Positions 2,862 through 50,245 of a stretch of DNA of 64,000 nt are shown here, piece after piece (within the stretch, counting starts at the first letter, position 1; each line of letters begins with the position of its first letter). The stretch is from Candidatus Woesebacteria bacterium. GTDB lineage: Bacteria > Patescibacteriota > Microgenomatia > UBA8517. The position numbers were made by a program, and so were the translations under genes. Below the pieces are notes generated by a model that worked only from the letters and a program-made list of their open reading frames with translations, was not told the DNA's origin and did not search any database. The stretch spans positions 9,312 to 73,311 of the forward strand of contig CAWASW010000001.1 in the NCBI GenBank assembly GCA_963784785.1. Reading direction: 5' to 3'.

Positions 2862-3689
2862 TTAATTAAAAACCGAGATATTAAGTGTTTTGGTAAGTTT
2901 TCCATCAATCATAGAATAAGTATAGTCTTGACCGATTTTTAAAGCGAGATACTTTTCAGGGATTTCGTCAACTGTTTCCTGTTGAATAAAACTTTGGTTT
3001 TCTGTATCAAAGATAAAATTGATAATATTTAGTTTTGTGTTTTTTGGTAATTTTCTCAAATTAAAACTACTTAAATTGATAATTTTGGAATCTATCTTTG
3101 TAAGTGATATCAAACCTCTATCAAATAACGCAATGAATTGACTAATATTTTCTGCAACTTTAGTTGAAAATTCTGTTACAAACTTTTCATTAGTTTGGTT
3201 ATTGATTAAATATTCTAATAAATGGCGATTTACTAAAACTACTTCACTTTTCTTGTTAGTGCAAAAAAATATTAAAGTATCTCGGTATTGAAAAAGGGGA
3301 TTCAGATGATATAGATTTATTACATTCTTAATATTAGGATCTATTTTGATAGTAGTCAAATCATAAATATTTACGTTATTGGGTAAATAACAATTCAATT
3401 GAGAATTGTAAATTCTACAGCCGATTTCACCGGCTATATTTTTTATTAAATTAATTGTTATGTTGTCATCAGGGGAAACAATAATGGTTAATTGCCCAGA
3501 AGTTTCTACTTTAATATGTGCGGTTGTTGGGGTGCCTATGTAATAAACAGTTGCAGAAGTTTCGTTTTCTTTTTCTATTTCTATGTCACCAGTAAAAGAT
3601 ATAAAATATTCTAAAATTTTACAAAAAGCATTTTTGGAGTCGTAAGGCTCATTGTTTGGCCTTAGATAATAATTTATTTGCGTCATCAA
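2862..3689 (-). CDS. Hypothetical protein (275 aa)
   Basis: Long ORF packed tightly between neighbouring genes; no recognisable motif. Confidence 0.45.
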   Translation of the reverse strand: MMTQINYYLRPNNEPYDSKNAFCKILEYFISFTGDIEIEKENETSATVYYIGTPTTAHIKVETSGQLTIIVSPDDNITINLIKNIAGEIGCRIYNSQLNCYLPNNVNIYDLTTIKIDPNIKNVINLYHLNPLFQYRDTLIFFCTNKKSEVVLVNRHLLEYLINNQTNEKFVTEFSTKVAENISQFIALFDRGLISLTKIDSKIINLSSFNLRKLPKNTKLNIINFIFDTENQSFIQQETVDEIPEKYLALKIGQDYTYSMIDGKLTKTLNISVFN

Positions 3690-12165: not shown

Positions 12166-13245
12166 TTAATTAGATTTAATCTTTTTTCTGCTTTTCAGTA
12201 ATCTTTTAATTTCTAGATCAAAATCAGATACATAATTTTTATCTTGAACTTTTCTATATTTCTCAAATTCTTGTTCTGCAAGCGCCGTTGCAACTTCATG
12301 GCTAACTTTACCTGCATTTTTTAAAATTCCTTTTCCCAATAATAACAAATATTCGTCAAGTTTAAGTATCCAATCTTTCATAGTCATTGTGAGTTCATCT
12401 CTTGCTTGTATTTCGGCAAATGATAAATAAGCATCGACTATTCGATTTAGTTTTTCAAGTTCGTTTTGATTAAGATAATTTTTGGCGATAGAAATATCTT
12501 TCTGAATAGGGTGGAGCCCTGAAAAATTTGTAAGTCCCATAATGGGTTTATTACTATCCGCACGTTCTGCAATTATTTCTGCAGCAGTCTTACCAGTTAC
12601 AGCAAAATGCATTTTATTTTGAACAGTTTTAAAAAACAGATCAGTTTCTTTTGCATCTTTGCGATAATCAATTGCAGTTGCATAGATATCAGTTACCTTT
12701 TGATACAACACCCGCTCACTTGAACGAATGTCTCTGATTCTTTCCAAAAGCTCTTCAAAATAACGAGATTTATATCCACCTTGTTTTAAACGAGTGTCAT
12801 CCATAGTAAAACCCTTGACCATATATTCCTTTATTTTTTCAGTGGCCCATTGACGGAACAAGGTTCCACGAGTTGAATTAACTCGATAACCAAGTGCGAC
12901 AACGGCCTCCAAACTATACATTTTAGTTACATATTTTTTCTTGTCACGAGCAGTTGTCAAGAAATCCTTGACAACTGAAATTTGATCTAATTCATTTTCC
13001 TTAAATATATTTTTGAGGTGAAGACTAACGTTTTGCTTTGTTGTGTCAAAAAGTTCAGCCATGAGTTTTTGTGATAACCAAACATTTTCGTGTTCAAAAC
13101 GAACTTCAACTCTAGTTTTGCCATTATCTGTTTGGTAGATAATAATTTGTGATGATCTGTTTTCCATGGTATTGGTAGATATTTGAACTTGTAAGAATTC
13201 CTTACAAGTTGAACTGTCGAGAAATCCTCGGTAGTTAATTATCAT
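12166..13245 (-). CDS. RhuM-family protein (Virulence_RhuM / Fic-associated DNA-binding family)
   Basis: N-terminal [48 protein letters not shown] and overall 359-aa length are characteristic of RhuM family proteins. Confidence 0.65.
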
Positions 13246-13284
13246 TGTATACTGAATTAATTTTCAAAAAAAGTATGTTAATTA

Positions 13285-15036
13285 ATGTTAAACTTACAAA
13301 AAATGAAAGTTACGGATTTGATTCAAAAAGGGAACGAAAATGCAGTAACAGGTAACTATAAACTTGCGATAAATTTTTACAAAAAGGTCATAAAAATAGA
13401 TCCAAAAAATGTTATTGCCTGGGGTAATTTAGGCTCAATGCAGGAAAAAATAGGACAAGATGAAGAAGCCTTGTACTCAATAAAAAAGGCAATTGAATAT
13501 GGTCCAGATTATGAAATTGGACTTTACAACTTAGCTCTTCTTTTAATTAAACTAAAAAGGTCAGAAGAAGCTCTAGTTTACCTTGATCGGGCAATTTCAT
13601 TAAATCCTAATAAAATTGATGCGCATTTTAATAAAGGTATCGCAATGCAACGTTTGGGAAATACCGAGGAACAGCTAAAGTCTTTTGAGAAAGTTCTTCA
13701 AATTAAACCAGATTATCCAGATATCATGAATAGATTATGGTTTCTGTACCGTCAAGTGGGAGACTTTGGGAAAGCAGAAAAATTAGAGTTTAAATTGGGT
13801 CAAGGGCATGATCCATTCATAAGTTTAGTTAAATCAGAAGATCCAAAGGAAAACTTGGAGGTAGCCAAAAAAGTTTCTGGTAAGTTATCTGGTTTTGCTC
13901 TAAATTCTAAAATTAAATTTAAATATTCCAAGAGTTCTAAAATTAGACTTGGCTATTTTTCTAATGACTTGAAAGAACACCCAGTTGGCCAAATGGTCTC
14001 TTCAATGTTTAAACATCATGATAGAAATAAGTTTGAAGTTGTGGCCCTATCATACGGTAAAGATGATGGCGGTGAAATAAGAAAAACAATTAAAAAAAAC
14101 GTAGATGAATTTGTAGATTTATCCGGCAGAATGACGGATTTTGAAATGGCCAAGATTATAAATAGTAAAAAAATAGATATCCTGATTGAAATGACAGGGT
14201 ATACAAAAGACACAAGGCTTGGTGTTGCAAGTTTTAGGCCTGCTCCAATTCAACTTCACTTTCTTGGTTTTCCAGGAACACTTGGGGCTGATTTTATAGA
14301 TTATGCAATAGTTGACGAAATAGTTGTTCCCAAAAACGAACAGATTTATTTTACTGAAAAACTTTTGTATTTACCAAGATGTTATCAAGTAAACAGCGAA
14401 GTTAAAATACTAGACAAAATTTACAAAAGAGAGGACTTTGGATTACCCAAAACAGGTTTTGTCTTTGGGTCATTTAATCAGATTTATAAGATAGACAAAA
14501 CAATTTTTACTGTTTGGATGAATATTTTAAAAAGAGTTCCTGAAAGCGTTTTGTGGCTTTTGAACCAATTTCCAGAGTGTGAGATAAATTTAAAAAAAGA
14601 AGCAAAAAGGCAGGGAGTTGATCCTAAACGAATAATATTTGGAAAACATATGCCAAAGTCAGAACATTTAGGACGGCTAAAGTTAACAGATTTGGGGCTA
14701 GATACAATTAATTATGGAGGCCATACAACGACAACTGATTATTTATGGAGCGGAGTACCTGTTATTACAAAATTTGGAAGCCATTTTGCCTCCCGAGTTT
14801 GTTCATCAATTTTATCTGAAGTTGGGTTAAATGAATTAATCGTCAAGGATTTAGAAGCATATGAAGATTTAGCTGTAGAGCTTTCAAATAATCCCAAGAA
14901 ATTAAATAAATATAAAGCTATAATAACTCAAAGTAATTTAAAAACAAACCTATTTGATACAAGTGGGTTTGTCAAAGATTTAGAAAAGATATACACAAAA
15001 ATATATGCTAGATATCACAGAAAAAAGACTAATTAA
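13285..15036 (+). CDS. TPR-repeat protein fused to GT41 (O-GlcNAc-transferase-like) glycosyltransferase domain
   Basis: N-terminal TPR units (AWGNLGSMQEKIGQDEEALYSIKKAIEY...). The C-terminal half has GYFSNDLKEHPVGQMVSS and HTTTTDYLWSGVPVITKFGSHFASRVCSSIL, typical of SPINDLY/OGT-type GT41 catalytic regions. Confidence 0.65.
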   Translation: MLNLQKMKVTDLIQKGNENAVTGNYKLAINFYKKVIKIDPKNVIAWGNLGSMQEKIGQDEEALYSIKKAIEYGPDYEIGLYNLALLLIKLKRSEEALVYLDRAISLNPNKIDAHFNKGIAMQRLGNTEEQLKSFEKVLQIKPDYPDIMNRLWFLYRQVGDFGKAEKLEFKLGQGHDPFISLVKSEDPKENLEVAKKVSGKLSGFALNSKIKFKYSKSSKIRLGYFSNDLKEHPVGQMVSSMFKHHDRNKFEVVALSYGKDDGGEIRKTIKKNVDEFVDLSGRMTDFEMAKIINSKKIDILIEMTGYTKDTRLGVASFRPAPIQLHFLGFPGTLGADFIDYAIVDEIVVPKNEQIYFTEKLLYLPRCYQVNSEVKILDKIYKREDFGLPKTGFVFGSFNQIYKIDKTIFTVWMNILKRVPESVLWLLNQFPECEINLKKEAKRQGVDPKRIIFGKHMPKSEHLGRLKLTDLGLDTINYGGHTTTTDYLWSGVPVITKFGSHFASRVCSSILSEVGLNELIVKDLEAYEDLAVELSNNPKKLNKYKAIITQSNLKTNLFDTSGFVKDLEKIYTKIYARYHRKKTN

Positions 15037-15643
15037 ATTAAAAGATTTAGGTTTTGTGCCGAGAACAGTTTTGGATATTGGTGCATATGTAGGGGACTGG
15101 ACTAAGATGGTTAAAAATATTTGGCCGGCTTCAGAATTTATTATGATTGAAGCAAATGAAGAAGTTGCGCCCAATGGCGCCACTGTTGCACTCTTGGGTA
15201 GAAATGAAGGAAAAGTTACTTATTATAAAACTTCAAATGAATTTAAAACTGGAAACTCAATTTTTTTAGAGCAAACTAGTTATTTCAAAAATAGTGAGAA
15301 AAGAATTTTAGATATGCAGACATTGGATAAATTGGCAATTAAAAACAAATGGAAAAATATAGATTTTATTAAAATTGATACTCAAGGTTCAGAACTAGAA
15401 ATTATTGCAGGTGGATTAAAAACTATTAAAAAGTGCGAGTTCGTACTCTTGGAAACACAAAATTTAACATATAATTTAGGTGCTCCAAAAACGCTAGAGG
15501 TGATGAATAAAATGGATGAACTAGGATTTACTCTCTTTGATATTACAGAACTACACCACATTCCAACAGGGGAAATGCAGGGAGTGGATATGCTTTTTAC
15601 AAGTAAAAAGTCAGAGTTTATTAAGAAGGGATTGTTGTGGTAA
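15005..15643 (+). CDS. FkbM-family SAM-dependent methyltransferase
   Basis: VLDIGAYVGDWT glycine-rich SAM motif; size and layout match Methyltransf_21/FkbM. It overlaps the upstream gene end, so the true start may be further downstream. Confidence 0.55.
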   Translation: MLDITEKRLIKLKDLGFVPRTVLDIGAYVGDWTKMVKNIWPASEFIMIEANEEVAPNGATVALLGRNEGKVTYYKTSNEFKTGNSIFLEQTSYFKNSEKRILDMQTLDKLAIKNKWKNIDFIKIDTQGSELEIIAGGLKTIKKCEFVLLETQNLTYNLGAPKTLEVMNKMDELGFTLFDITELHHIPTGEMQGVDMLFTSKKSEFIKKGLLW

Positions 15644-16698
15644 AAGTGTTAAAAATTGGCTTTGTCAATTTTACACCACTTAAATATGATGTTGATACAC
15701 CACTTCAGGAGCCTTTAGGAGGTTCAGAATCTGCAATGTGCTATCTTGCCGTTCAAATGGCAAGGGATGGACATAGAGTTACACTTTTTAGAAGAAATGA
15801 AGAAGAATTTACTAAAAGTGGGGTACTACATAAATCAGTAAATAAAATAATTACCACCGACCTTGATTTTTTAATTATACAAAACACTCCATTTTTTGGG
15901 TTACAAATAAAAGAAAAAATTAATCCTAAAACAAAGTTAATATATTGGTCACAACATGCCTCAAATCAACCTGCTGTGGAATGTCTTAAAGACTCTAAGT
16001 TCCAAGATATTTACGATGCAATACTACTTTTAAGTGATTACCAAATTGAGGATTATAAAAATGCATTTAAAATTAACCCAACCAAAATAATTAAATTTAA
16101 AAACGCAATTTCACCAGCTTTTGAGAATTTAAATATAGAAAATAAAATCCCATGGTCATATTGCTACACCAGCACGCCATTTAGAGGATTAAAGCTTTTG
16201 CCAGAACTATTTACAAGAGTAAGAGAGGTTAATATTAAGGCAAAACTATTTGTGCATTCAAGCATGGGTACTTATCAAGGAGATAATACAGTGGAGGAAG
16301 AATACCAAGAAATTTATACGGCTATCAAAAACACTGATGGTGCGGTATATAGTGGTTCAATTTCGCAAACTGAACTTTCCGATAAATTATCAAAATATGA
16401 ATATTTGGCCTATCCCAATATTTTTGCTGAAACTTCTTGTATTTCTGTAATGGAAGCTATGGCGGCCGGTTGTCAGGTCGTTACCACCGATCTTGGTGCA
16501 CTACCTGAAACTTCAGCTGGGTTTGCAAGACTTATTAAAATTACAGGTAATGAGGAGGAGTACAAAAGTAGTTTTGTGCGGGAAATGCAAAAACCAATTG
16601 ATAAAAATAGGATAGAAGAACAGGTCAAATTTGTAAGAGAAAATTATACTTGGAAAGTTAGATCTAAAGAGTTGTATACTTTATTACAGAATGTTTGA
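15637..16698 (+). CDS. Glycosyltransferase, GT-B fold (GT4-like)
   Basis: EPLGGSESAMCYLAVQMARDGHRVTLF N-terminal motif and a C-terminal EAMAAGCQVVTTDLGALPE motif typical of GT1/GT4 enzymes. Confidence 0.6.
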   Translation: MVKVLKIGFVNFTPLKYDVDTPLQEPLGGSESAMCYLAVQMARDGHRVTLFRRNEEEFTKSGVLHKSVNKIITTDLDFLIIQNTPFFGLQIKEKINPKTKLIYWSQHASNQPAVECLKDSKFQDIYDAILLLSDYQIEDYKNAFKINPTKIIKFKNAISPAFENLNIENKIPWSYCYTSTPFRGLKLLPELFTRVREVNIKAKLFVHSSMGTYQGDNTVEEEYQEIYTAIKNTDGAVYSGSISQTELSDKLSKYEYLAYPNIFAETSCISVMEAMAAGCQVVTTDLGALPETSAGFARLIKITGNEEEYKSSFVREMQKPIDKNRIEEQVKFVRENYTWKVRSKELYTLLQNV

Positions 16699-17773
16699 TT
16701 TTTTAAATTTCTTTGTAGCTGCTGCCATTTCTTCTTGTACGGTATCCGTTAATCCTGCAAGCTTTGAAAATAATATATCTGATACATTAAATTTTAGTAT
16801 TTCAAATAATGATGAAACAGGTAATCCGATAAGATATATCAGAATTACTTCTCCGTCCTCCAACTTTGTTATAACTTCAGCAAATGGGCCTCAAATTACA
16901 GGCGCTGGAATTAGTGACCAAACAGCAAATATCAAAGTCAATGATATTGATTCTGGTGGGTCTGTTGATATTGGCCTTGGTGTAAATACATTAAATGCAC
17001 AAAATCAGGCTAGCTGGAGTGTTTCTGTTACAGACGATGTTGATGGTAATAATTTAGTTGGGTGCAGTGGAGATACCGGAGTTACCATTACTTCACCTGG
17101 GCAAGCCACGGTAGTAATATCTAATTTATCTGTTGCTGTTTCTGATAGCAGCGCCACAATGTCATGGAGTACAGCGGTTTCTGCCAGTACAATTGTAGAA
17201 TATGGAAAGACCGAGCAATATGGAAGTACCGCAACAGGAACCTCAGAGACTAATCATTCTATAAATTTACCAAGTCTATCTGCAGATACTCAGTATTATT
17301 ACCGTGTAACAAATACTGATGCAGTTGGGAATGTAGCACAAGTCTCAGGAAATTTTAGAACTGCGGTGGCAGGAATAAATACTGAAACAATAGTCACAAC
17401 AACTACGACGGTTACTAATACTGTAAATGTTACAAAAACTTTAGTAGATACTACGCCACCAACAATTCGATTTAAAACTACATTTAAAAAAATATATGAA
17501 GAGGCACCTTTAATTGAAATAGTTTCAACCGATGGGACGGGGATAGCAAGAGTTGAATATTCAATAGATGGGGGAAAGAACTACATACCTATCGGCATTG
17601 AAACTGTTGGAAGTAAACAATTAGTTTCAGAATTTACTCCAGACGCAGTCGAAGATGGAGATTATTCATTACAGGTTAGAGTGACCGATACTACGGGAAA
17701 TAGGACTCTATCTAAAGAAATAAAATTTACGATAGACAGGCTCCCCCGAGACCGTTACATTTCGGTCTCCTAA
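16691..17773 (+). CDS. 5' portion of a surface protein gene (FN3 and Ig-like domains) split by the MITE insertion; its last 9 codons and stop come from the MITE
   Basis: FN3-like segment SATMSWSTAVSASTIVEYGKTEQYGST...DTQYYYRVTNTDAVGN. Removing the MITE and one TSD copy restores an in-frame junction ...FTIDRLP|PRVGPLTVMAGP... with ORF 17930..18700. Confidence 0.55.
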   Translation: MFDFLNFFVAAAISSCTVSVNPASFENNISDTLNFSISNNDETGNPIRYIRITSPSSNFVITSANGPQITGAGISDQTANIKVNDIDSGGSVDIGLGVNTLNAQNQASWSVSVTDDVDGNNLVGCSGDTGVTITSPGQATVVISNLSVAVSDSSATMSWSTAVSASTIVEYGKTEQYGSTATGTSETNHSINLPSLSADTQYYYRVTNTDAVGNVAQVSGNFRTAVAGINTETIVTTTTTVTNTVNVTKTLVDTTPPTIRFKTTFKKIYEEAPLIEIVSTDGTGIARVEYSIDGGKNYIPIGIETVGSKQLVSEFTPDAVEDGDYSLQVRVTDTTGNRTLSKEIKFTIDRLPRDRYISVS

Positions 17774-17942
17774 AACACACTGATTTTACTATACTTTCGG
17801 CCTAAAAAGGTAGTTTCACTAAGTAAACGCTTCTACAACCAATTTCAGCATTGTCCGAGTAATCGGACGAAAGTGTTATTATTTTAACGAAAAACAACAA
17901 ATCATTTAAGGCTAAACAAGTGACCGTTTATGCAACGGTATC
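17748..17942 (-). mobile_element. MITE copy A (about 195 bp), flanked by a 9-bp TSD GGCTCCCCC; inverted relative to copy B
   Basis: 100% identical, reverse-complemented, to 21089..21281. Termini match the TIRs of the IS at 24734..25904. The interior has three hairpins (GAGACCG-N8-CGGTCTC, GTCCGA-ttac-TCGGAC, ACCGTT-N6-AACGGT). The direct repeat GGCTCCCCC abuts both ends. Confidence 0.65.
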
Positions 17943-18700
17943 GGCTCCCCCCGCGTGTTGGGCCTCTTACAGTCATGGCTGGGCCAATTTCTATAAATAG
18001 CGGTATCTCCGAAATAACGGAATTATTGGTAGGTGTTGAGTATAAATTTATACTAACTGCAGCAGGAGGACCTAATAAAATTAATATGAAATGTAAAGAC
18101 AATATTTATAAATTTACAAAAAATAACGACGTAGGAGTTTGGACAACTAAAGTTAAGTTTTCAGAAGAAGGACAATATTTACCTGAAATAGTTGCAGAGG
18201 ACGGAGCAGGAAACATAGAAACAGTGAACAGTGAACAATTGAAAGTTAACGGTTTAGGAAAACTCAAAAATGGAATAATCACTGTTTACTGGTACGATAA
18301 TTTTGAGAAAAAATTTGTGAAGTGGGATGCAGAACCTTATGGACAAGTTAATCCAATTAATACTAATGACTTAGCTGGTTATTCTATATTGTTACCAAGT
18401 GGAAAGTATTATCTTGAGGCAAAAGCTATTGGAAAAAGAACAAGTGTAACTAATATTATAGAGACTCATGAAACAGTTTATATAAATGACGATTGGGAGC
18501 TATCACCGTCATGGAAATTTTGGCAATTTAGAGAACAGAAAATTGTTAATCCTAAAAAGCTTGGTAATGAATCTTGGAAGGATGTTAGTTTTGCTCTTCC
18601 AAAAGTTAACTTAAATAATTTATCGACCTTAGATATTCGAGGAAAAAAACAGTTGTCAGTTTGTTATCTTCATGGCATCCATCTACAAATGATTATCTAA
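17930..18700 (+). CDS. 3' portion of the MITE-split surface protein (Ig-like repeats), reading from an ATG supplied by the MITE terminus
   Basis: Begins atgcaacggtatc|ggctcccc, with the first 13 nt in the MITE. In frame with ORF 16691..17773 once the MITE is removed. AEDGAGN/VTDTTGN Ig-like repeats continue the upstream domain pattern. Confidence 0.5.
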   Translation: MQRYRLPPRVGPLTVMAGPISINSGISEITELLVGVEYKFILTAAGGPNKINMKCKDNIYKFTKNNDVGVWTTKVKFSEEGQYLPEIVAEDGAGNIETVNSEQLKVNGLGKLKNGIITVYWYDNFEKKFVKWDAEPYGQVNPINTNDLAGYSILLPSGKYYLEAKAIGKRTSVTNIIETHETVYINDDWELSPSWKFWQFREQKIVNPKKLGNESWKDVSFALPKVNLNNLSTLDIRGKKQLSVCYLHGIHLQMII

Positions 18701-18966
18701 AAGTAATCGATGAATTAATTAAAAATAAATATAGTGCTTTCCCAATTTTGGTGCAAGAAAAAGAGACATCTGCAACAGCTCTCGAAAGAAGAGGCAAATA
18801 TGGAGCTAATATTTATGCTGATCCAGACGGAGAGATTTTAAATGAAGTTGTCATCTCTGGTTTGCCAACAACTTGGATAGTCAATAGATTTGGACAGGTT
18901 GTAAAAACAAAGGTAGGTGGAATATCCTTTCAGGAAGTGCTTGAAGTACTGAATAGTATAGATTAA
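18661..18966 (+). CDS. TlpA/thioredoxin-like (redoxin) C-terminal segment lacking the CxxC cysteines; joined to 17930..18700 through a frameshift at an A7 run near 18640
   Basis: GLPTTWIVNRFGQVVKTKVGGISFQEVLEVL matches the C-terminal end of TlpA/ResA redoxins. The position of WCPPC reads SSWHPST. One extra A in the ggAAAAAAAcag run fuses the frames (DIRGKKKTVVSLLSSWHPST...). Confidence 0.45.
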   Translation: MLSSWHPSTNDYLKVIDELIKNKYSAFPILVQEKETSATALERRGKYGANIYADPDGEILNEVVISGLPTTWIVNRFGQVVKTKVGGISFQEVLEVLNSID

Positions 18967-19064
18967 CAGATTGCTTCACTTTTGTTCGCAATGACACACA
19001 TAAAAGTATGTACTAAAAGTTATTGGCTTATCAAATTGGGAGTTAGTGCAAGAACAGTCAAACG

Positions 19065-19394
19065 CTATATCAAGTTAATTAATTTCTGGATTTCCTGCAT
19101 GTGTTTTTGAATTGTTTCTTGGTCACGAAAATTTTTTGAAAAATTAGCTAGCCATGGTAATGTTTTCAATATTGATTCTTTTGTTGGATTATCAAAATCT
19201 CCGTTAGTTTCCTCAAAAGCTTGGCTTATAATTTGGGTACAATACAGCCTATTGGAAGTTTCATCAACCTTTTCAGTTAAGTCTGATATCTCTGTTTGAT
19301 TACAATGGGCATCGTAGAAACAACTAACTAAAGCACCTTTTACCATTTCTGGAGTAATTTCTTTTGTTGTATCAATGCTGTAAATCAAACTCAT
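19065..19394 (-). CDS. Hypothetical protein (109 aa)
   Basis: ORF only; no motif recognised. Confidence 0.35.
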   Translation of the reverse strand: MSLIYSIDTTKEITPEMVKGALVSCFYDAHCNQTEISDLTEKVDETSNRLYCTQIISQAFEETNGDFDNPTKESILKTLPWLANFSKNFRDQETIQKHMQEIQKLINLI

Positions 19395-19440
19395 TAGTTT
19401 AATTGTACTACAAATAATGTATTATTAAATAATACTGCCC

Positions 19441-20937
19441 ATGTGGATAATATTTGCCTTAGAAAATTTATATTTTGCTTTAAATATCTTTGCTTCTCTT
19501 ACTTTTTTTTCAGTAGCTTGGCTTTACTTTGATGCGTGGAAGGCCTTGAGATCAAACAGAGAAATTTGGAAGATTGTAGCCTTTATTATTTTAGGAATAT
19601 CTTTTTTGTTTCGAGGAATGGACATGAGAGGTGTTGAAATTTTTCAAAGCTTAGATATTTACTTGAGAGCTTTAGGCTATATGCTGTTAGTTGTAGGTTT
19701 AGTTATAGATCCACTCCAACCTCGTCCTGAGGACGATCGGCCTTTGGCTGATAAAAATATGGCATTTGTTTTGATCGCTTTTCCTCCACTTTTTTTCTTG
19801 TCACCAGTATTAGCTGCAATAGTTGCAGTTCTGTATTTAAGACGGGCTAGTATTGGGCTTGAACGTCATATTTACCCACCTGCAATCTCTTTCTTTTCTC
19901 TATCTATTTATGAATTAACTTTTAGCTTAAATAGTTTTAGAGTTACTGATAATTTAAATTTATTTAATATTTTGGCTCCATTTGGGCCTATGTGGTTGGC
20001 CAATTTAGCATTTTTATTTTTAGCAATTTTATTTTTAGGAAGATGGGTTTTTAGATATTTACTAAAACAATTTCAGTCTCAACTTTTTATGGTTATGATG
20101 AGTTTGGTTTTGTCAGTTTATTTAATAGTTACAGTTAGTTTTACTGGTCTTCTTCTAAACAATTTAAAGACTCAGATACTACAAGAACTTACATCAGAAG
20201 CTAAAGTTTTGGAATTTGCATTTAATGCAAAAAAGAGTGAACTACTGTCACTAGCACAACTTCTTGCAAGGTCGGACCCTGCAGGTTTGGCAGGGTCCGA
20301 CCTTAACACGAGCTCTCACGATTCTTTAGTTGTTTTTGACAAAGATGGCCTTGTCACATATCGTGCTGAAGACACCGAGAGGAAAGGGGATTCGATTTCG
20401 GGGGATAATTTAGTCAAGCAAGTTTTGTCTGGCAAGGAAAATTCAAACATAGTAGTTAAAGAAGGAGTAACGGCTCCAACAGTAATGATAGTTTCAGGTG
20501 CTCCAATAATGGCAAACGGAGTAGTCAGTGGTGGCGTTATCGTCGGTGATTTGATTGATAACTCATATCTTGAGGGTTTTAGTAAGCTAACAGGACTTAA
20601 ATCTGCAGTCTATGGAAATAATATATTAAGTGCAGGTGGAACCGTTGGAATTACTGAAACTGATTCTAAGATAAAAGAGACGGTTTTAACAAAAGGTGAA
20701 ACCGTAGCTCTTGAAAATAGATGGTTAAATTATGCTTTCTTGTCTGTTTATTCGCCACTTAAAGACGTTGACGGAAACCCTGTAGGAATGTACTTTGTAG
20801 GTCGCCCTCAAGTAGAAGTTTTAAATCTTGCTAGTAAAACTTTGGAGTCGGTTTTCTTGGGTACAATCTTCTTGTTGTTATTATCGATGATACCTGCAAA
20901 GCTTATAGCAAATAGTATTACAAAACAAATTAAATGA
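19441..20937 (+). CDS. Polytopic membrane protein with C-terminal extracytoplasmic sensor-like domain and terminal TM, no output domain (truncated-sensor-like)
   Basis: Multiple N-terminal TM helices, a roughly 200-aa soluble region, then TM VFLGTIFLLLLSMIPAKLIA; ends just before a non-coding stretch and MITE-B. Confidence 0.5.
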   Translation: MWIIFALENLYFALNIFASLTFFSVAWLYFDAWKALRSNREIWKIVAFIILGISFLFRGMDMRGVEIFQSLDIYLRALGYMLLVVGLVIDPLQPRPEDDRPLADKNMAFVLIAFPPLFFLSPVLAAIVAVLYLRRASIGLERHIYPPAISFFSLSIYELTFSLNSFRVTDNLNLFNILAPFGPMWLANLAFLFLAILFLGRWVFRYLLKQFQSQLFMVMMSLVLSVYLIVTVSFTGLLLNNLKTQILQELTSEAKVLEFAFNAKKSELLSLAQLLARSDPAGLAGSDLNTSSHDSLVVFDKDGLVTYRAEDTERKGDSISGDNLVKQVLSGKENSNIVVKEGVTAPTVMIVSGAPIMANGVVSGGVIVGDLIDNSYLEGFSKLTGLKSAVYGNNILSAGGTVGITETDSKIKETVLTKGETVALENRWLNYAFLSVYSPLKDVDGNPVGMYFVGRPQVEVLNLASKTLESVFLGTIFLLLLSMIPAKLIANSITKQIK

Positions 20938-21043
20938 CGGACAAAATTATATTTAGTATAGGGATTTTTATTAGTTTGGTAATTGTGTGTACAAGTGGGT
21001 TTTTGTTTTATAAAACCCAAACAGTTAAAATTGCAAGTGACGA

Positions 21044-21064
21044 GTTACGAGTTACGAGTATTCA
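21044..21064. repeat. Heptanucleotide tandem repeat (ACGAGTT x3)
   Basis: acgagttacgagttacgagta read directly from the sequence. Confidence 0.6.
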
Positions 21065-21088
21065 AACCCCTGAACCGACGATGAAAGA

Positions 21089-21281
21089 TACCGTTGCATA
21101 AACGGTCACTTGTTTAGCCTTAAATGATTTGTTGTTTTTCGTTAAAATAATAACACTTTCGTCCGATTACTCGGACAATGCTGAAATTGGTTGTAGAAGC
21201 GTTTACTTAGTGAAACTACCTTTTTAGGCCGAAAGTATAGTAAAATCAGTGTGTTTTAGGAGACCGAAATGTAACGGTCTC
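21089..21281 (+). mobile_element. MITE copy B, flanked by a 9-bp TSD ACGATGAAA
   Basis: Exact reverse complement of 17748..17942; ACGATGAAA is present on both sides. Confidence 0.65.
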
Positions 21282-21284
21282 ACG

Positions 21285-21539
21285 ATGAAACCACAGCCAC
21301 AGATAGATTACAAAAACATTGAAATAGAAGTATTAAATGGGTCGGGAATAAGTGGGCAGGCAAAAATATTTGCTAATAAATTAGAAAAACTTGGCTACAC
21401 AAAAGTTTCAACTGGTAATTATAAAGAAATAGTTGATCGTGGTTTATTGCTTGCTCCAACTGACTTCGGTAAAGAAATTAACATGGTTGATTACATCTAT
21501 CAAAAAGATGAAAAGACAAAAATAATAATTTCAAAATGA
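21285..21539 (+). CDS. LytR_C-like (LCP C-terminal) small domain protein
   Basis: IEIEVLNGSGISGQAKIFANKLEKLGYTKVSTGNY matches the LytR C-terminal domain signature (V.NGtg..GlA..vA..L...Gf.v...gNa). ATG at 21285 lies in the MITE TSD; the ORF-track start at 21249 is inside the MITE. Confidence 0.45.
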   Translation: MKPQPQIDYKNIEIEVLNGSGISGQAKIFANKLEKLGYTKVSTGNYKEIVDRGLLLAPTDFGKEINMVDYIYQKDEKTKIIISK

Positions 21540-21628
21540 AAAACTTTTCTTTATCTAACAAAGTTGTTAGTATGTGCTAAGTTTAGTTTGGTATTTACAT
21601 TTGACGAATCAGTTGCTAAATTATAATT

Positions 21629-21935
21629 ATGTCAACCAAAGTTCTAATTACAGAAGATGATCCTTTGATGAGTAGAATGTATCAAAAGATTTTTACTTTT
21701 GAGGGTTATGAAGTAATTATGGCAGGGAACGGTGAAGAAGGCCTTGAAAAAGCTAAGCTCGAAAAACCTACAATAATTCTTCTTGATGTCATGATGCCAA
21801 AAATGAATGGGTTACAGATGCTTGAGAAACTCAAGCTTGATCCAGATACCAAAAAAATTCCTGTAATTATGCTTACTAATTTGGCTGGCGAAAAAGATGC
21901 AGAAAATGCAATGAGTAAAGGTGCAGTAAAATATA
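21629..21935 (+). pseudogene. CheY-like single-domain response regulator truncated by IS insertion; the displaced 3' end lies at 23067..23169
   Basis: REC domain motifs (ITEDD, ILLDVMMPKMNG, IPVIMLTN, K in AMSKGAVKY) end at the IS boundary. After the IS, the duplicated 8 bp continues the original frame: ...AVKYIVKSEFEPKQIVDMVKEILAGYTRDSIPETK*. Confidence 0.65.
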
Positions 21936-21963
21936 GGCTTAATGGAACTAATGTGTTGTTTTT

Positions 21964-22491
21964 CTAATCCTGTTTTGTTTTATTATCGGCCTTCATTTTT
22001 TCAAAGTTGTAATAATATACAAACCATTTAAGGTAACTTTCCCAACGAGTCTTTTTAAGGCCTTTATGTCTTAACCATCTTTGTCCTATATGCCCAAATG
22101 TAGCTTCAATTTCATTTGTTGTTTTTGGCATAGTTGGGTGGTCTAAAAACTTGAATGAGGTTTTTGGAAGTTTAATTAGGATCCTGACAGCTTTTCTCAC
22201 ACCTTTATGAATATACCAACTGTGGCCAGAATCATCTGTCCTCATCTCTTTCAGAAAGAAGAAATTAGCCTTAACCCAATCTTTTAAGATTGTTTCCCAG
22301 TATTTCAAAGCTTCATGACTTTCTATGAACCAAATGTGGTTTGCAATTTTTATTAATTCTTCAATTCTTCTATCTTTTGAGTGTCTACCAAGTGCATTTA
22401 CAATATCTCTATGCATATGAGCAAGACATATCTGATGTGGAGAGTGGGGGATACACTTCATCAACCGCAGAACAAATGGCAGTTCCTCCAT
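21964..22491 (-). CDS. Transposase C-terminal part (+1 frame relative to 22409..22987; junction at a C5 run)
   Basis: HQICLAHMHRDIVNAL continues the alignment with the 24752 transposase (VWQLCQNHYKHNL). Frames fuse if the C-run in tatCCCCCactc is one shorter. Confidence 0.6.
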   Translation of the reverse strand: MEELPFVLRLMKCIPHSPHQICLAHMHRDIVNALGRHSKDRRIEELIKIANHIWFIESHEALKYWETILKDWVKANFFFLKEMRTDDSGHSWYIHKGVRKAVRILIKLPKTSFKFLDHPTMPKTTNEIEATFGHIGQRWLRHKGLKKTRWESYLKWFVYYYNFEKMKADNKTKQD

Positions 22492-22987
22492 CTGTTACAG
22501 AGCCTGAAAATGTGTATTTTAATTCCTCCTTTATGAACCTCAAATCCTTAACTATTTTTGTTGAAGCCTCTCTACCAGCAATAGATACATGCAAAAGGTA
22601 CAAAGTTCCACTTTGTCTATACAGCATCAAGACAAACCATCTTCCAAACCAAAGCCCATCAATCAAAAGATATGCAGTATCAATTCTTCCAGACAAAGTT
22701 TGATCAAATCTAGGAAGTTTTGGAGGATCAAGAAGCAATAACTTATGAAATTCACCCTCCAAATATCTTACAGACAAACCTGAGACAGAAGACAGCATTT
22801 CATATGTCAAACCCCACAAAATATACTGTCTGAAAAGATCAACTACTTTAAAATCTTTCTTTTTATTGTGGTAAATTCTTGAAGTTTTACAAACTTTACA
22901 AAACCATCTTTTCTTTCCAGTTCCAGTCTTTCCCCACAGAAACATTTTACTATTACAGGATATGCACAAAAGTGTTCTTTGACCCAT
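22409..22987 (-). CDS. Transposase N-terminal part (C4 zinc finger, HTH, start of DDE domain)
   Basis: CISCNSKMFLWGKTGTGKKRWFCKVCKTS zinc finger; LLIDGLWFGRWFVLMLYRQSGTLYLLHVSIAGRE aligns with LLVDGKYVKVKGYDRKIPVIYGIDYLTHDIVHFVFGPSE of the 24752 transposase. Confidence 0.65.
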   Translation of the reverse strand: MGQRTLLCISCNSKMFLWGKTGTGKKRWFCKVCKTSRIYHNKKKDFKVVDLFRQYILWGLTYEMLSSVSGLSVRYLEGEFHKLLLLDPPKLPRFDQTLSGRIDTAYLLIDGLWFGRWFVLMLYRQSGTLYLLHVSIAGREASTKIVKDLRFIKEELKYTFSGSVTDGGTAICSAVDEVYPPLSTSDMSCSYA

Positions 22988-23193
22988 TGAATACTATTCA
23001 AACTCAAAATGAGGCGTATTATCAACTATATCTTTCTGTTATATCAACACACTATGCTATTAAGCCAAAATATATTGTAAAGTCTGAATTTGAGCCAAAA
23101 CAAATTGTAGATATGGTTAAAGAAATCTTAGCAGGTTACACAAGAGACTCAATTCCTGAAACAAAGTAATATTTTAACATCGTACGTACTCCA

Positions 23194-23805
23194 TCAAAAT
23201 ATCACATTAAAATAGTCATAGGTTAGTCCTGTTCTACCAGTCCAGTTGGTAGCAAAATCTGAAGCTCCTTTTGAATACCTATAAGCACCAGTCGATAATT
23301 CTTTTTGTATAAACCAGGCGCCGTCTTTATTCACGAATCCGTAATAAACATCAATACCTGAATCGTCAATTTCAGTAATATTGTAGCCGTCTGTAGGTTT
23401 CTTTTCCGATGGGTCTATGAGGACACCTGTGCTATTTTTAACTGATATAGATCCAGGACCGGGCATGCTACCAAAAAAAGAAGCTTCAGCTTTTCTGGTA
23501 AATACTGTCATCAAGAATAACGAACCTCCAGCAGCACCAATTAGTTTTAAAAATTTACGTCGTTCAGGATCGTAGTCCGTATTTTCAATTTTCTTGATAT
23601 TATCAGGAATTATGTCCAACACTGGCTCAAAACTCAAAGTTTTTGCTTTTCTTGGAATTATTAATGTTGCAAAATAAAAGGCAAGAGGAGTAAATATTAT
23701 CGCAGTGATCAACTCTGGTACGCTGGAAGCAGATAAAATTCCTGTTACCGCCATAAAAGAGGTAACTACAAATGCATAAAAGGTAATTATTTTTCGTATA
23801 ATCAT
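23194..23805 (-). CDS. Protein with an internal canonical twin-arginine signal; likely a Tat substrate whose true start is an internal TTG near 23630
   Basis: DPERRKFLKLIGAAGGSLFLMTVFTRKAEA|SFFG gives SRRxFLK, an h-region and an AxA site. Upstream of it the ORF encodes two TM helices that may be a separate small ORF. Confidence 0.45.
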   Translation of the reverse strand: MIIRKIITFYAFVVTSFMAVTGILSASSVPELITAIIFTPLAFYFATLIIPRKAKTLSFEPVLDIIPDNIKKIENTDYDPERRKFLKLIGAAGGSLFLMTVFTRKAEASFFGSMPGPGSISVKNSTGVLIDPSEKKPTDGYNITEIDDSGIDVYYGFVNKDGAWFIQKELSTGAYRYSKGASDFATNWTGRTGLTYDYFNVIF

Positions 23806-24005
23806 AATATTTTGTTTAACGAAACCAAAGACAATATTAGTATCACACTTGCAAAATAAAATAGTAATTTTTTATTTTTTGCAAGATTGAATTCGTTTGA
23901 ATTTGTTAGAAGAGTTGCAACCAAATACGCTGTTATCGGCAAAAAAAGATATGAATTTATTGAAATAAACGCTGAAACTAATATCAAAAATAATAAATAA
24001 ATCAT
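23802..24005 (-). CDS. Small membrane protein (67 aa)
   Basis: Two hydrophobic helices; weak. Confidence 0.3.
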   Translation of the reverse strand: MIYLLFLILVSAFISINSYLFLPITAYLVATLLTNSNEFNLAKNKKLLFYFASVILILSLVSLNKIL

Positions 24006-24271
24006 GGTAATGGTGTAGCTAATAATAACCCATTTGATTCAATAGATTCTCTTAACGCTCTAATTTCAGCCCGTATAAGTAATAGTTCAGGCTGAGAATT
24101 TGGTAAAGCTGTGGAAGTTGCACCAGGCATTGGTGTTTTGACTAATTGAGTAATAATGGTAGTTGGCTTTTCGGTAGTTTTACTTACTTTAGAAATTATA
24201 ATAATGGAGAATGCCATATTTAAAATACATAAAAAGAAAATAATAACTAAAACTCTAGAGTACTTTTCCAT
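24002..24271 (-). CDS. Small membrane-anchored protein (89 aa)
   Basis: N-terminal TM; weak. Confidence 0.3.
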   Translation of the reverse strand: MEKYSRVLVIIFFLCILNMAFSIIIISKVSKTTEKPTTIITQLVKTPMPGATSTALPNSQPELLLIRAEIRALRESIESNGLLLATPLP

Positions 24272-24323
24272 AATATAAATATTACCACTTTACAAAGAGA
24301 TTAAAATTATGTAAATTACCAAT

Positions 24324-24668
24324 ATGGTCAAAGGAAAGGCAGCTAAAAAAATTAACAAAACAGTAAAGGTGTCTAACATTTTAGAGGCATTTAATGTAGA
24401 GATGATTAATGATCAAATAGTTGAATTAAGAGCAGATATGTCTCGATGTGTAAATGAGTCTATTTCCGTTTCCATATTATCTTTGTTGTTATTTATTGGT
24501 TCGCCTTCAGTTTTTCCTGAAATAATTAACCCTTATCTGCCATCTTCTTTAAAGATAATGCAGGCATTTGTTGCAATTCCTGTAATATTTTGGGTAATAA
24601 CAAGTTTGGGCAATATGGTTCGTTATTTTAAGATACTAAAACTTAAAGATTCCGCTTCCTTACGTTAA
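24324..24668 (+). CDS. Hypothetical membrane protein (114 aa)
   Basis: Two TM segments; weak. Confidence 0.3.
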   Translation: MVKGKAAKKINKTVKVSNILEAFNVEMINDQIVELRADMSRCVNESISVSILSLLLFIGSPSVFPEIINPYLPSSLKIMQAFVAIPVIFWVITSLGNMVRYFKILKLKDSASLR

Positions 24669-24733
24669 TTCAAAGTTGTTTAGTCCTAAAAAGATAGTAT
24701 GATTAATACATGCTCTCTATTAGAACAAAAGTA

Positions 24734-25904
24734 GATACCGTTCATAAACGGTCACTTGATAAGCTTCAGAACGTCTTCAATTTTGTAATTGTCTTTTAAA
24801 GTTTGTTGTAACGATGATTTTCCATTTAGTTTTTTAAATTGTTTGGTGCAGTCTGTAAATGGTTTTAATCGCCTTTTTAAAAAATAAGCATTGAGCCAGA
24901 GTTTCGCTGTTTTGTAGTTTTGAAAACCTTTGATTGTTTTAAGCCTGCCTTGAAGATGTGAGTTGAAACTTTCGATTAAGTTGTTTGTTCTTGGAATGTG
25001 AGGCATCTTTGTATATGCAAAAAGATCAGCTGATCTTTTTGCAATATCAAGCATAACTTTTTTGCATAAATCATCTTTGGTTGCATATTTGTTGTATATT
25101 TTTGAAGCTCTACTTTTAAAATCTTCAGTTGATATTTTGTTTGAAAATAATGTTTCAATTTCATTCATAAAAGGTCTGTAAGTTGGGTCATTGTTTAAAT
25201 TTAAAGTTGTTCTTAAATTGTGTTTGTAGTGGTTTTGGCACAGTTGCCAGACTGCAGTGGGATAAACACTTAAACACGCCTGTGGCGTGTTCTGGTTGTC
25301 ATCTGAAATAATTGCTTGAAGTGGATAATTTGCAAGCTTTAGTGAAGAGAAAAACTTAAGAAGTAAGCTGTAATTTTCTGAAGGTCCAAAGACAAAATGG
25401 ACTATATCATGTGTAAGGTAATCAATGCCATAAATAACAGGGATTTTTCTGTCATAGCCTTTGACTTTGACATATTTGCCATCAACTAAAAGTATCCCAC
25501 AAAACCTGTTGCAATAATTTCTTGTGATATCAATACAAAGTGGCAATCTTTCTAAAACTTCAAAGTAAGCTTCATATGATTTTCCAACTGATATTTTTAA
25601 ATCATCTGCAATTGTTCTAAAAGATAAACCTGACATGTGAGATAACAACAACTTTGAAGAATTTAACTTCTTAGCTCTATTTATTTGAAAATAGCAACCA
25701 CAATCTTTGCAAAAATACTTTAATTTCCCACGTCTAACACCTTTTTTAATTACATCTTTTGAAGAACATCTAGGACAACTATAAACTCTTTTTTCATGCC
25801 TGAATGATACCAGAATTAAGAAAGCTTCACATAGTCAAAACACCAACTTGGATGGAATTATAGGGATTAACTACCAAAATAAGTGACCAAAAATGAACGG
25901 TCTC
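24734..25904 (-). mobile_element. IS element (about 1171 bp) of the same zinc-finger/DDE family; parent of the 195-bp MITE; 24-bp imperfect TIRs; 9-bp TSD ACAAAAGTA
   Basis: Left end GATACCGTTCATAAACGGTCACTTG (24734-24758) against right end AAGTGACCAAAAATGAACGGTCTC (25881-25904). ACAAAAGTA is directly repeated at 24725-24733 and 25905-25913. MITE termini match these ends. Confidence 0.65.
24752..25797 (-). CDS. Transposase (zinc finger + HTH + DDE, about 349 aa), needs a +1 A in an A6 tract directly after the ATG
   Basis: The frame upstream of the track ORF encodes (K)RVYSCPRCSSKDVIKKGVRRGKLKYFCKDCGCYFQINRAKK... The only ATG (25795-25797) sits one frame off: atgAAAAAAgag. Seven A's would give MKKRVYSCPRC... 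Confidence 0.55.
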
Positions 25905-27392
25905 ACAAAAGTAATATTAATTTTAGCTATTGGTACACTTTTTATATTAATTTCTTCAATTGTTTTTACCTCAAAGTTGATTGGTCAGAAATTAGATGAA
26001 CTAGAAGTCCGTAGTGCTGTAATAGACTTACAGAGGATAGATGGAGCTATAGCTTCCGAAAAAAGTAATTTATTGGATAAAATATCTGATTGGGCTTCTT
26101 GGGATGATACATATCAGTTTGTAAAAGATAATAATACTGCTTATATAAAATCAAATTTACAGCAGACTACCTTTGATAGTTTAAGACTTAGCTTTATGAT
26201 CTTCTTGGACGTCAATGGTAATACAGTGCATGAAGTAAAAGCCCCCGTTGGTATTAATAAATATTTAGTAAAAGATGAATTTTTGTTGAAATTTGATAGT
26301 TTAAAGTCAAATAAGTCAGGCATGATAATGCTTCCTGATGGTATGTATTTGGTTGCTTCTAAACAAATACTTAATAGTGCTTCTGAAGGTCCGGCAAGAG
26401 GAACATTAATTTTTGGTAGGTACTTCGGTAAGCAAGAAATAGATAAAATAGCAATTTCAACTAAACATGATGAAATTAGATTGCTTTCGATGGGTTCTCA
26501 AAAAATGAATGACACAGAAATAACTAACACTAATGAAAATATCTTATCTGCTAAAAATGTTGTAAAAGACATTTTTGGTAAAAATATTGCATATTATGTT
26601 GTAGACATAGAACGTGGAATTCATCTACAGGGAATTCAGAGTACTCAATATACGATTGGGTTTTTGATAGGTATTAGCATTATTTTCTTTGTAATGGTTT
26701 TATTTTTCTTAGCATCTCTCGTTTTGTCTCCACTTAAAAAAATATCATCAGATGCAAATAACATAACTCAGTCTAAAAACTTTATGCTTCGAGTGAAACA
26801 TGAATCTAAAGATGAAATTGGGCTACTTTCAAGAAATATAAACGAAATGCTTGACTCACTCCAGTTGGCAAAAGATGCCGTCTATTCAGAGACCGAAAAA
26901 ATTAAGACATTTTTCGATGTCGTTTCGGGAATAGTAGTGGTTATTAACAAAGATGGTGTTGTCGTTTCTGTTAATCAAAAAGGCGCAGAATTTTTAGAAT
27001 ATGAAACAAATGAGATCGTTGGTAGGAATTGGTTTGACGTCTTTATCCCAGAGGAAGATAAAGAAAAAATGAAGCAAACATTTGTCGACATGGTTACTAA
27101 TATCAGCGCAGACAAAAATAAATATTTTGAAAATCTAGTTGTTACAAAGTCCGGTAAAAAATATTTAATGGGATGGCACAATAGTTTGTTGCTAGACAGA
27201 AATAGGAATATCCTAGCATCTGTCAGTCACGGAGAAGATATTACGGACAAAAGGAAGATAGAAGATGATGAAAAATCACAAAAAGAAGAGCTGGAAAAAT
27301 TAAACCAACTAATGATGGGTAGAGAGATTAAAATGATTGAACTTAAAAAGGAAATTGAAAAATTGAAACAGAAAGATGAAAATACGCAATAG
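25893..27392 (+). CDS. Membrane signal-transduction protein (TM - periplasmic sensor - TM - HAMP-like - PAS - coiled coil; no kinase domain) with an IS-derived start codon
   Basis: PAS-like core FFDVVSGIVVVINKDGVVVSVNQKGAEFLEYETNEIVGRNWFDVF. Its ATG lies 12 nt inside the IS right end. The original start MLSIRTKV... is at 24710, on the other side of the IS. Confidence 0.55.
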   Translation: MNGLTKVILILAIGTLFILISSIVFTSKLIGQKLDELEVRSAVIDLQRIDGAIASEKSNLLDKISDWASWDDTYQFVKDNNTAYIKSNLQQTTFDSLRLSFMIFLDVNGNTVHEVKAPVGINKYLVKDEFLLKFDSLKSNKSGMIMLPDGMYLVASKQILNSASEGPARGTLIFGRYFGKQEIDKIAISTKHDEIRLLSMGSQKMNDTEITNTNENILSAKNVVKDIFGKNIAYYVVDIERGIHLQGIQSTQYTIGFLIGISIIFFVMVLFFLASLVLSPLKKISSDANNITQSKNFMLRVKHESKDEIGLLSRNINEMLDSLQLAKDAVYSETEKIKTFFDVVSGIVVVINKDGVVVSVNQKGAEFLEYETNEIVGRNWFDVFIPEEDKEKMKQTFVDMVTNISADKNKYFENLVVTKSGKKYLMGWHNSLLLDRNRNILASVSHGEDITDKRKIEDDEKSQKEELEKLNQLMMGREIKMIELKKEIEKLKQKDENTQ

Positions 27393-49106: not shown

Positions 49107-49137
49107 CTAGGCTTAATGGAACTAATGTGTTGTTTTT

Positions 49138-50161: not shown

Positions 50162-50245
50162 TGAATACTATTCAAACTCAAAATGAGGCGTATTATCAAC
50201 TATATCTTTCTGTTATATCAACACACTATGCTATTAAGCCCAATC

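Follow-up and report, generated by a model that had tools for sequence, protein, structure and literature searches.

A 195-bp MITE derived from a divergent IS256-like insertion sequence family, present as an inverted pair in a Patescibacteria genome

[quoted passage not shown] Described examples include MITEAba12 of Acinetobacter (PMC6382973), MITEPsy1/2 of Pseudomonas syringae (PMC3189936) and the MITEs of Coxiella (PMC5896051), which are shorter than 300 bp and non-coding, have terminal repeats in common with an autonomous IS, are flanked by a target site duplication (TSD) typical of the IS family, occur in several identical copies, some of them in genes, and need a transposase supplied in trans. 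A 195-bp unit sharing these properties is present as two inverted copies in a 64-kb stretch of Candidatus Woesebacteria DNA (contig CAWASW010000001.1), the whole of which is referred to here as the window. It differs from the described elements in its host, which belongs to the Patescibacteria or candidate phyla radiation (CPR), in being known from three copies only, in having ends of another subtype than those of the co-resident IS, and in that each terminus is itself a small palindrome. Very probably, this unit is a non-autonomous MITE of a Patescibacteria-borne, divergent IS256-like clade, in which the transposase combines a zinc ribbon at its N-terminus with a DDE domain of Mutator type, and it arose by internal deletion and was moved in trans.

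The leucyl-tRNA synthetase encoded in the window has its best named matches, at 74-82% identity, in Patescibacteria, Woesebacteria and Microgenomates. Named homologues of the Ig/redoxin protein described below come from Woesebacteria and Saccharimonadia, and relatives of the resident IS are found in Woesebacteria metagenome-assembled genomes (MAGs). Patescibacteria possess very small, streamlined genomes. A full-text literature search returned no relevant paper linking MITEs with Patescibacteria/CPR, a group that a large 2024 survey of MITEs does not mention; MITEs appear to be undescribed there. The finding alters no concept about IS-derived MITEs. It documents recent gene-disrupting transposition in a Patescibacteria genome, with two MITE and two IS insertions in 8 kb, and it defines the ends, the TSD and a non-autonomous derivative for an uncharacterised zinc-ribbon IS256-like clade, which helps annotation and the spotting of assembly breakpoints.

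The two copies in the window, each 195 nt long and 100% complementary to the other, form a perfect inverted pair at 17748-17942 and 21087-21281, with arms 3144 nt apart, as found by repeat search and direct string comparison. An earlier reading of the window made from the letters alone (the sequence-only reading) had called them exact reverse complements; this is correct over all 195 nt, although the start that it gave for the second arm, 21089, is off by 2 nt, the true start being 21087. The terminal 22-25-mers of the unit occur only at these two sites in the 64-kb window, with none expected in shuffled sequence. The copies and their duplications are as follows.

17748..17942, plus strand: MITE copy 1, 195 bp, left end GAGACCGTT..., right end ...AACGGTATC, inside the Ig-like/redoxin gene, forming a perfect inverted repeat with copy 2
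21087..21281, minus strand: MITE copy 2, 195 bp, in reverse orientation, inserted precisely where a small gene with a LytR_C domain has its start codon
17739-17747 (left) and 17943-17951 (right), unstranded: TSD of copy 1, 9 bp, GGCTCCCCC, read directly and checked by script, encoding the conserved (R)LPP in the restored gene
21078-21086 (left) and 21282-21290 (right), unstranded: TSD of copy 2, 9 bp, ACGATGAAA, read directly and checked by script, the right copy keeping the LytR_C ATG

Each copy thus has its own exact 9-bp direct repeat, as had been claimed, and the pair is accounted for by two independent insertions. The terminal inverted repeats of the unit, GAGACCGTTACAT..CGGTC and GATACCGTTGCAT..CGGTC, agree at 8/9 of the first nucleotides and at ~18/22 aligned positions. 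Its coding capacity is negligible, the longest stop-free stretch in six frames being 41 codons, and no Pfam-bearing open reading frame (ORF) lies inside it. Judged on sequence, the unit has the structure that defines an IS-derived bacterial MITE: a size within roughly 50-500 bp, lack of coding, terminal repeats, TSD, IS-homologous arms and dispersed identical copies. A separate Logan assembly, L001 (ERR12037365), is 100% identical to window positions 12953-17776 and ends 29 nt into copy 1, which is what is expected of a k-mer assembler at a repeat. Each terminus of the MITE and of the resident IS is a small palindrome (17748-17769, 17920-17942, 24734-24757 and 25881-25904), in which the terminal 6-9 nt recur, inverted, 4-10 nt inward, for example GAGACCG-N8-CGGTCTC and ACCGTT-N5-AACGGT. 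These palindromes may be a dimeric binding site for a zinc-ribbon transposase.

Both insertions fall on genes, and the first of these allows the event to be reversed in silico.

16691..18966, plus strand: Ig-like/fn3/redoxin surface-protein gene, split by MITE copy 1, with a further frameshift at an A7 run at 18643-18649

The ORFs 16691-17773 and 17930-18700 share a frame, the MITE and its duplication together measuring 204 nt, and deletion of 17748-17951 (copy 1 and one TSD) yields a continuous frame of 601 codons. The restored junction reads KFTIDRLPPRVGPLTVMAGP, in which the motif FTIDRLPPRVGPLTVMAGP is identical to that of the uninterrupted homologues P0002, P0005 and P0011 (607-712 aa, 51-69% identical). 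It is these homologues that constitute the empty-site evidence, and the support that they give to mobility is indirect; exact-protein look-ups gave no record for the response regulator or for P0054, and only L001 for the glycosyltransferase. At the second site, the TSD of copy 2 holds the ATG of the LytR_C gene (21285-21539, 84 codons, Pfam LytR_C at 5.7e-08), which is intact and is now 204 nt away from its former upstream region. Two further observations concern the split Ig/redoxin gene. Downstream of copy 1, the frameshift at the A7 run would be repaired by an A8 at 18643, which would restore ...DIRGKKTVVSLLSSWHP... as in the homologues and join the redoxin C-terminus (ORF 18661-18966); either the gene is decaying and this is a second, genuine lesion, or the sequencing erred at the homopolymer. 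In addition, the right end of the MITE offers an in-frame ATG at 17930 to the downstream half of the gene, a coincidence expected one time in three.

The unit is not confined to the window. A scan of GTDB species-representative genomes for the right end shared with the IS gave seven loci, and a third copy, 100% identical, lies at 2013-2207 of L002 (CAVZPH010000003.1, 379 kb) between unrelated flanks. Only 8 nt separate this copy from a tRNA-Met gene, at the 3' end of the latter. A second IS, found twice in the window, is also present in L002 at 100% identity and, because of this identity and that of the MITE, L002 probably derives from the same genome or population as the window. The record is titled 'uncultured Actinomycetota bacterium' and has a GC content of 35%, with mobile elements 100% identical to those of the Woesebacteria-like window; the Actinomycetota title is probably a taxonomy label or binning problem.

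A corresponding scan of metagenomes gave 28 loci, many at contig ends. One JGI contig, L009 (Ga0208375_1016394), carries a diverged variant of the MITE on its reverse complement at 3081-3275. This variant is again exactly 195 nt long and is identical to the window MITE (17748-17942) in 147/197 aligned columns, the right 90 nt being 93% identical and the left ~105 nt ~55-60%. Both variants are mosaic, and within each the two ends belong to a single IS subtype, which is type A for L009 and B-like for the window (the types are defined below); this suggests that ends may have been replaced, or recombined, between MITEs and different ISs. A profile built from the two variants found no further MITE copies in all the loci fetched, and viral contigs gave no match either to the shared right end or to a MITE-specific 27-mer. 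Two candidate loci, L005 and L033, were rejected as MITEs and are treated as remnants, since a right end of only ~30-38 nt is present in them and 2.5 kb of surrounding sequence holds no left end. Several insertions of the family lie 3-8 nt from tRNA 3' ends, namely the MITE beside tRNA-Met (L002:2208-2288), an IS end beside tRNA-Ser(tga) (L007:2716-2810, the same locus as L032) and a right-end remnant beside tRNA-Val (L033:2068-2181). Such positions may be preferred as targets, or they may act as safe havens where genomes are compact.

The notion that the pair arose by segmental duplication, or is an artefact of assembly or polishing, and not by two transpositions, can be regarded as effectively refuted. 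It would fit the perfect identity over 195 nt and the origin of the sequence in a metagenome assembly with at least one homopolymer frameshift (A7 at 18643), but it does not accommodate an exact 9-bp duplication private to each copy, the conserved protein motif regained on excision, the third copy at another locus, the left junction of copy 1 given at 100% identity by the independent L001 assembly, or the related 195-nt element in a JGI metagenome.

The family to which the MITE belongs is represented in the window by one autonomous element.

24734..25904, minus strand: the resident autonomous IS (1171 bp), which interrupts a CHASE4-HAMP-PAS sensor gene behind its eighth codon, TSD ACAAAAGTA
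24752..25797, minus strand: transposase gene, encoding a 4-Cys zinc ribbon and a Mutator/IS256-type DDE domain, 348 codons if read as MKK followed directly by RVYSCP

The 9-bp TSD of this IS, ACAAAAGTA, was confirmed by script at 24725-24733 and 25905-25913, and its terminal inverted repeats are 24 nt long and imperfect (19/24), within the 20-40 nt of such repeats in the IS256 family. A Logan contig of exactly 1171 bp, L038, is 89.6% identical to the resident IS, starts with GAGACCGTT and ends with AACGGTATC, so that the boundaries of the element are independently confirmed. The IS256 family spans 1.2-1.5 kb, and the resident IS is at or slightly below the lower limit. The repaired 348-aa transposase scores 45.4 bits against Pfam Transposase_mut (PF00872; gathering score 21) and 30 bits against NCBIfam IS256_N_4Cys (NF048018; cut-off 27). 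Against NCBIfam IS256 (NF033543; 72.3 bits, 3.5e-20) and its Zn-binding variant IS256_Zn_var (NF048019; 47.7 bits, 1.2e-12) it remains below the equivalog cut-off of 150 in each case. When the protein is aligned with 16 homologues, D106, D166/167 and E276 (in NLIESxNSH) and the four cysteines prove invariant, and the window protein has every one of them. Features shared with the IS256 family and NF048019 include a DDE domain with ...TNNLIESxNSHLxxRLK, TSDs of 8-9 bp, imperfect repeats of ~24 nt, a single transposase gene and the N-terminal 4-Cys motif; the resident IS differs in scoring far under the NCBIfam equivalog cut-offs and in a clade-wide start codon that is out of frame with the ORF. 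On these protein comparisons it is best called a member of a divergent IS256-like clade with an N-terminal zinc ribbon. TSDs of 9 bp also flank the relatives L006, L025 and L035, a length that fits the IS256 family, for which 8-9 bp has been reported (PMC3189936).

Approximately 1240 homologues of the transposase were found, nearly all of them metagenome proteins on contigs of ~1.2 kb, and the zinc-ribbon IS256-like clade is widespread in groundwater CPR metagenomes. Among the JGI metagenome contigs, L016, L025, L026 and L035 hold four IS copies that are 99.6-100% identical and whose flanks are swapped: L025 and L035 have matching 9-bp TSDs, L016 resembles L035 in its left flank and L025 in its right flank, and L026 is another hybrid. 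Recombination between IS copies in natural populations would fit this arrangement, as would chimeric assembly; a simple reciprocal exchange falls short of the complexity of the pattern, of which assembly chimeras may be a part. In the window, the left end of the resident IS supplies an in-frame ATG to the interrupted CHASE4-HAMP-PAS gene (24710-24733 and 25893-27392), reading ATG AAC GGT CTC and then, from the gene, ACA AAA GTA. A near-full-length sensor could still be made from this IS-supplied start, again a one-in-three coincidence.

When the MITE is compared directly with the resident IS, similarity is restricted to the termini, with 29/32 matches at the right end and 14/15 at the left and one 1-nt gap in each, a match of ends that the sequence-only reading had already noted. 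The terminal 9 nt (GAGACCGTT / AACGGTATC) are invariant across ten full-length IS relatives and both MITE variants. Two types of end can be distinguished. The resident IS, L037/L038 and the L009 MITE have type A ends (GAGACCGTTCAT..GGTCAC and GTTTATG-AACGGTATC), and L006, L016, L017, L018, L022 and L034 have type B ends (GAGACCGTTACAAAATGGTCTC and GTTTATGTAACGGTATC). Both ends of the window MITE carry one additional base, placed after GTT and before AACGG, and the MITE has GGTCTC; it is therefore type-B-like.

Beyond the termini, homology of the MITE interior was revealed by a colinear-offset test and by a MITE-profile search. MITE positions 31-82 align without gaps with IS positions ~30-81, in the 5' untranslated region (UTR), and this register is the best of ~1075 offsets in six of seven relatives; identity over the segment is 37/52 with L017 and 24/52 with the resident IS. 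The profile of the two MITE variants matches the L017 IS over positions 1-83 (E = 2.4e-7) and matches IS 3' ends over profile positions ~146-197. Local alignment of the MITE interior (26-140) with whole ISs rose above shuffles only for L017. The right 52-58 nt of the MITE match IS 3' ends and include the last transposase codons, the MITE reading ...LRLNK-TGA and the ISs ...LRLIK-TGA. As far as these alignments go, the MITE derives by internal deletion from an IS of the family, given that it is colinear with the IS 5' end over ~85 nt on its left and with the IS 3' end over ~55 nt on its right. By the same comparisons, the resident IS copy is not its parent, because the end subtype and the 5' segment of the MITE are closer to other family members. 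The earlier derivation of the MITE from the resident IS by deletion therefore holds for the IS family, to which both arms are homologous, but not for the resident copy, in view of the type-B-like ends and the identity of 24/52.

Under the proposed mechanism, an IS of the family would have undergone an internal deletion that kept the left ~85 nt, comprising the left end and the 5' UTR, and the right ~55 nt. A family transposase acting in trans would then recognise the invariant terminal 9 nt and the subterminal palindromes, and would cut out or copy the MITE, which would insert through a staggered cut repaired to a 9-bp duplication. At least three recent insertions would have followed in this genome, in the Ig/redoxin gene, at the LytR_C start codon and beside the tRNA-Met gene at the other locus. 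That the movement was recent is indicated by the three copies, which show zero differences. Mobilisation in trans by the resident transposase is plausible, cross-recognition of the MITE being an assumption, since the end subtypes differ. Which transposase moved the MITE, and whether it is active at present, is something that we infer, the resident IS being the only candidate seen and one with ends of the other subtype.

A possible but rather unlikely account would make the MITE an orphan, amplified by an IS with type B ends (GAGACCGTTACAAAATGGTCTC / GTTTATGTAACGGTATC) that has since been lost or was never assembled; the resident type A IS could not move it, and its copies would be fixed fossils. 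In support of this account, the MITE shares its extra terminal bases and GGTCTC with all the type B relatives listed above, its 5' segment has its closest counterpart in L017 (37/52) and its most distant in the resident IS (24/52), and in the L002 genome record the sole match to the IS family outside the window is the MITE itself. However, three copies with 0 differences in 195 nt point to a very recent date of movement, by which the resident IS had probably arrived, and the terminal 9 nt are identical in both end types. Furthermore, the L009 variant with its type A ends indicates that MITE ends track different IS subtypes, and the assembly is a MAG from which IS copies may be missing.

Several observations count against the reading of the unit as a MITE mobilised in trans by a transposase of this IS family. 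Its end subtype differs from that of the only family IS seen in the genome (GGTCTC vs GGTCAC, and the extra bases), and the resident transposase itself requires a frame change directly after its ATG. No source was detected for the middle ~55 nt, which include an 8-bp hairpin, and a profile made from IS 5' ends alone matches the MITE interior weakly (E of 0.19 for L009 and 3 for the window MITE). The L002 copy is flanked by a 7-bp direct repeat, CGAATTA, and not by 9 bp, the L009 variant has no clean TSD, and a true empty-site allele of the same strain was not found, exact-protein look-ups giving the filled site or nothing. Finally, three known copies is a low number, classical MITE families often being far more numerous.

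The inverted arrangement of the two copies raises the question of the DNA between them.

17952..21077, unstranded: bracketed block, 3.1 kb, holding the 3' portion of the Ig/redoxin gene, a minus-strand ORF of 109 aa and a membrane sensor of 498 aa with a Cache domain

RecA-dependent recombination can act on inverted repeats such as these two 195-bp copies, and inversion of the block through RecA, as had been suggested, is plausible in that the pair is a potential substrate. The matching TSDs are intact at each copy in the assembled orientation, so no net inversion has taken place since insertion. The perfect pair marks a site at which strain-level inversion could be sought in long-read data. 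A stronger proposal would treat the two MITEs and the 3.1 kb as one unit, either a composite transposon or an invertible, phase-variable segment controlling the sensor and Ig genes. Identical inverted ends do enclose a block of genes, both outer termini are left ends whose joint use is possible in principle, and the flank-swapped ISs (L016 and L026 vs L025 and L035) show or mimic recombination between copies of the family. This proposal is nevertheless very improbable. The outer flanks, GGCTCCCCC on the left and ACGATGAAA on the right, are not a duplication, and on this ground a composite-transposon origin was rejected; a separate TSD around each MITE means that the block was not brought in as a composite. 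Annotation with Pfam and a composition check showed no recombinase gene and no GC anomaly in the block, there has been no net inversion, and both insertions break or abut genes and bring no promoter, the count of promoter-like sites not being above that of shuffles.

The interior of the unit had been said to fold into at least three hairpins; those found are the two terminal palindromes and an internal 8-bp stem, TTGTCCGA-GTAA-TCGGACGA. The fold z-scores on the two strands are -2.9 and -3.0. This predicted stability, together with a terminator-like hairpin within the unit, the 93% identity of the right 90 nt between the two MITE variants (vs ~55-60% for the left half) and the right-end ATG in frame with the downstream part of the split gene, would suit a unit that is or was co-opted as a structured small RNA or as a cis-regulatory cassette with a terminator-like hairpin and an outward-facing ATG. 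We give such co-option very little credence. An Rfam scan of 16-27 kb gave no match at E <= 1, promoter-like sites are not enriched over shuffles, and the terminator-like matches are the MITE hairpins only. Much of the predicted stability comes from the terminal palindromes, and the internal stem loses two pairs in L009 with no compensation, in a comparison that involves two MITE variants. The in-frame ATG is the one-in-three coincidence mentioned above, and the other end reads ATG-TAA. The earlier idea of a discrete structured RNA accordingly finds no backing here.

A further observation concerns the start of the transposase in the IS family. In the window IS, the ATG at 25797-25795 (minus strand) is followed by A6 (25794-25789) and then GAG, and the long ORF (HEKRVYSCP...) lies in the -1 frame, in which ATG, GTG and TTG are all absent upstream of Met55. 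The stretch that is a candidate for recoding is TGGTATCATTCAGGCATGAAAAAAGAG.

Near IS position 108 in L006, L016, L017, L018, L022, L034, L037 and L039, as in the window at 25789-25797 (minus strand): -1-frame transposase start

The sequence ATGAAAAAAGA, with the ORF in the -1 frame, is present in the window IS and in eight further distinct relatives (70-90% nucleotide identity, from independent datasets), in which the context ...TGNTAT(C/T)ATTCA(G/C)GCATGAAAAAAGA... is also conserved, its TGnTAT(C/T)AT box lying 6 nt before the ATG. The more distant L039 (55% aa identity) has the same -1 arrangement; L040 reads ATG-AAA-AAA in frame, and L041 is +1 off, with GTG-A7. Many database homologues are called as 294 aa from Met55 because the start is out of frame. 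Sequencing error was considered as the source of the frameshift, since the neighbouring Ig/redoxin gene shows an A8-to-A7-type frameshift, and was rejected, the same arrangement being found in all close relatives from independent datasets. From this conservation, the frame offset is taken to be neither a sequencing error nor the mark of a dead gene.

The conserved out-of-frame start suggests programmed slippage or recoding, possibly on a leaderless mRNA. Putative mechanisms include a -1 slip on AAA-AAA, transcriptional slippage, or initiation at a conserved in-frame CTG. There are precedents for -1 frameshifting on AAA-AAA (PMC1851650, PMC4066793) and for transcriptional slippage in IS elements (PMC1088944). 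As in the A-run recoding of IS genes, such as the A6C -1 frameshift of IS1, an A6 occupies the point at which a -1 change of frame (or one added A) is needed for the full transposase, and the arrangement is conserved across diverged copies. In contrast to those cases, the shift would take place at codons 2-3, directly after the ATG, two substantial ORFs are not joined by it, and no upstream regulatory product like InsA or OrfA is present. A broader and tentative scheme, for which the odds appear to us unfavourable, is that of a Patescibacteria-specific IS256-like system whose transposase would be made only via A6 recoding, by a -1 ribosomal slip or by RNA-polymerase slippage, on a leaderless mRNA from a TGnTATCAT extended -10 box; recoding would set the rate of IS and MITE transposition, and MITE variants would exchange or co-evolve ends with IS subtypes. 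If this were true, recoding would govern how often both elements transpose in very small genomes. The conserved out-of-frame start is the more novel lead to come from the window and the likeliest to reward further work.

The region 16691-27392 holds four mobile-element insertions in ~8 kb, comprising the two MITE copies, the IS256-like IS and one copy of the second IS, all of them in or at genes for sensors, response regulators or surface proteins. This cluster is either a local hotspot or a gene cluster under relaxed selection. The second IS is 1131 bp long and is known from three copies, at 21936-23066 and 49110-50240 in the window, with 1 mismatch between them, and at about 858-1988 of L002. 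The two ends of the element read GGCTTAATGGAAC... and ...GCTATTAAGCC, and its copies are flanked by 8-bp TSDs, namely AAAATATA, CAATCCTA and CGAAAACT. Two minus-strand ORFs overlap within it, one of which weakly matches DDE_Tnp_IS66 (7.5e-05). A response-regulator gene with its start at 21629 has lost its 3' end to the copy at 21936.

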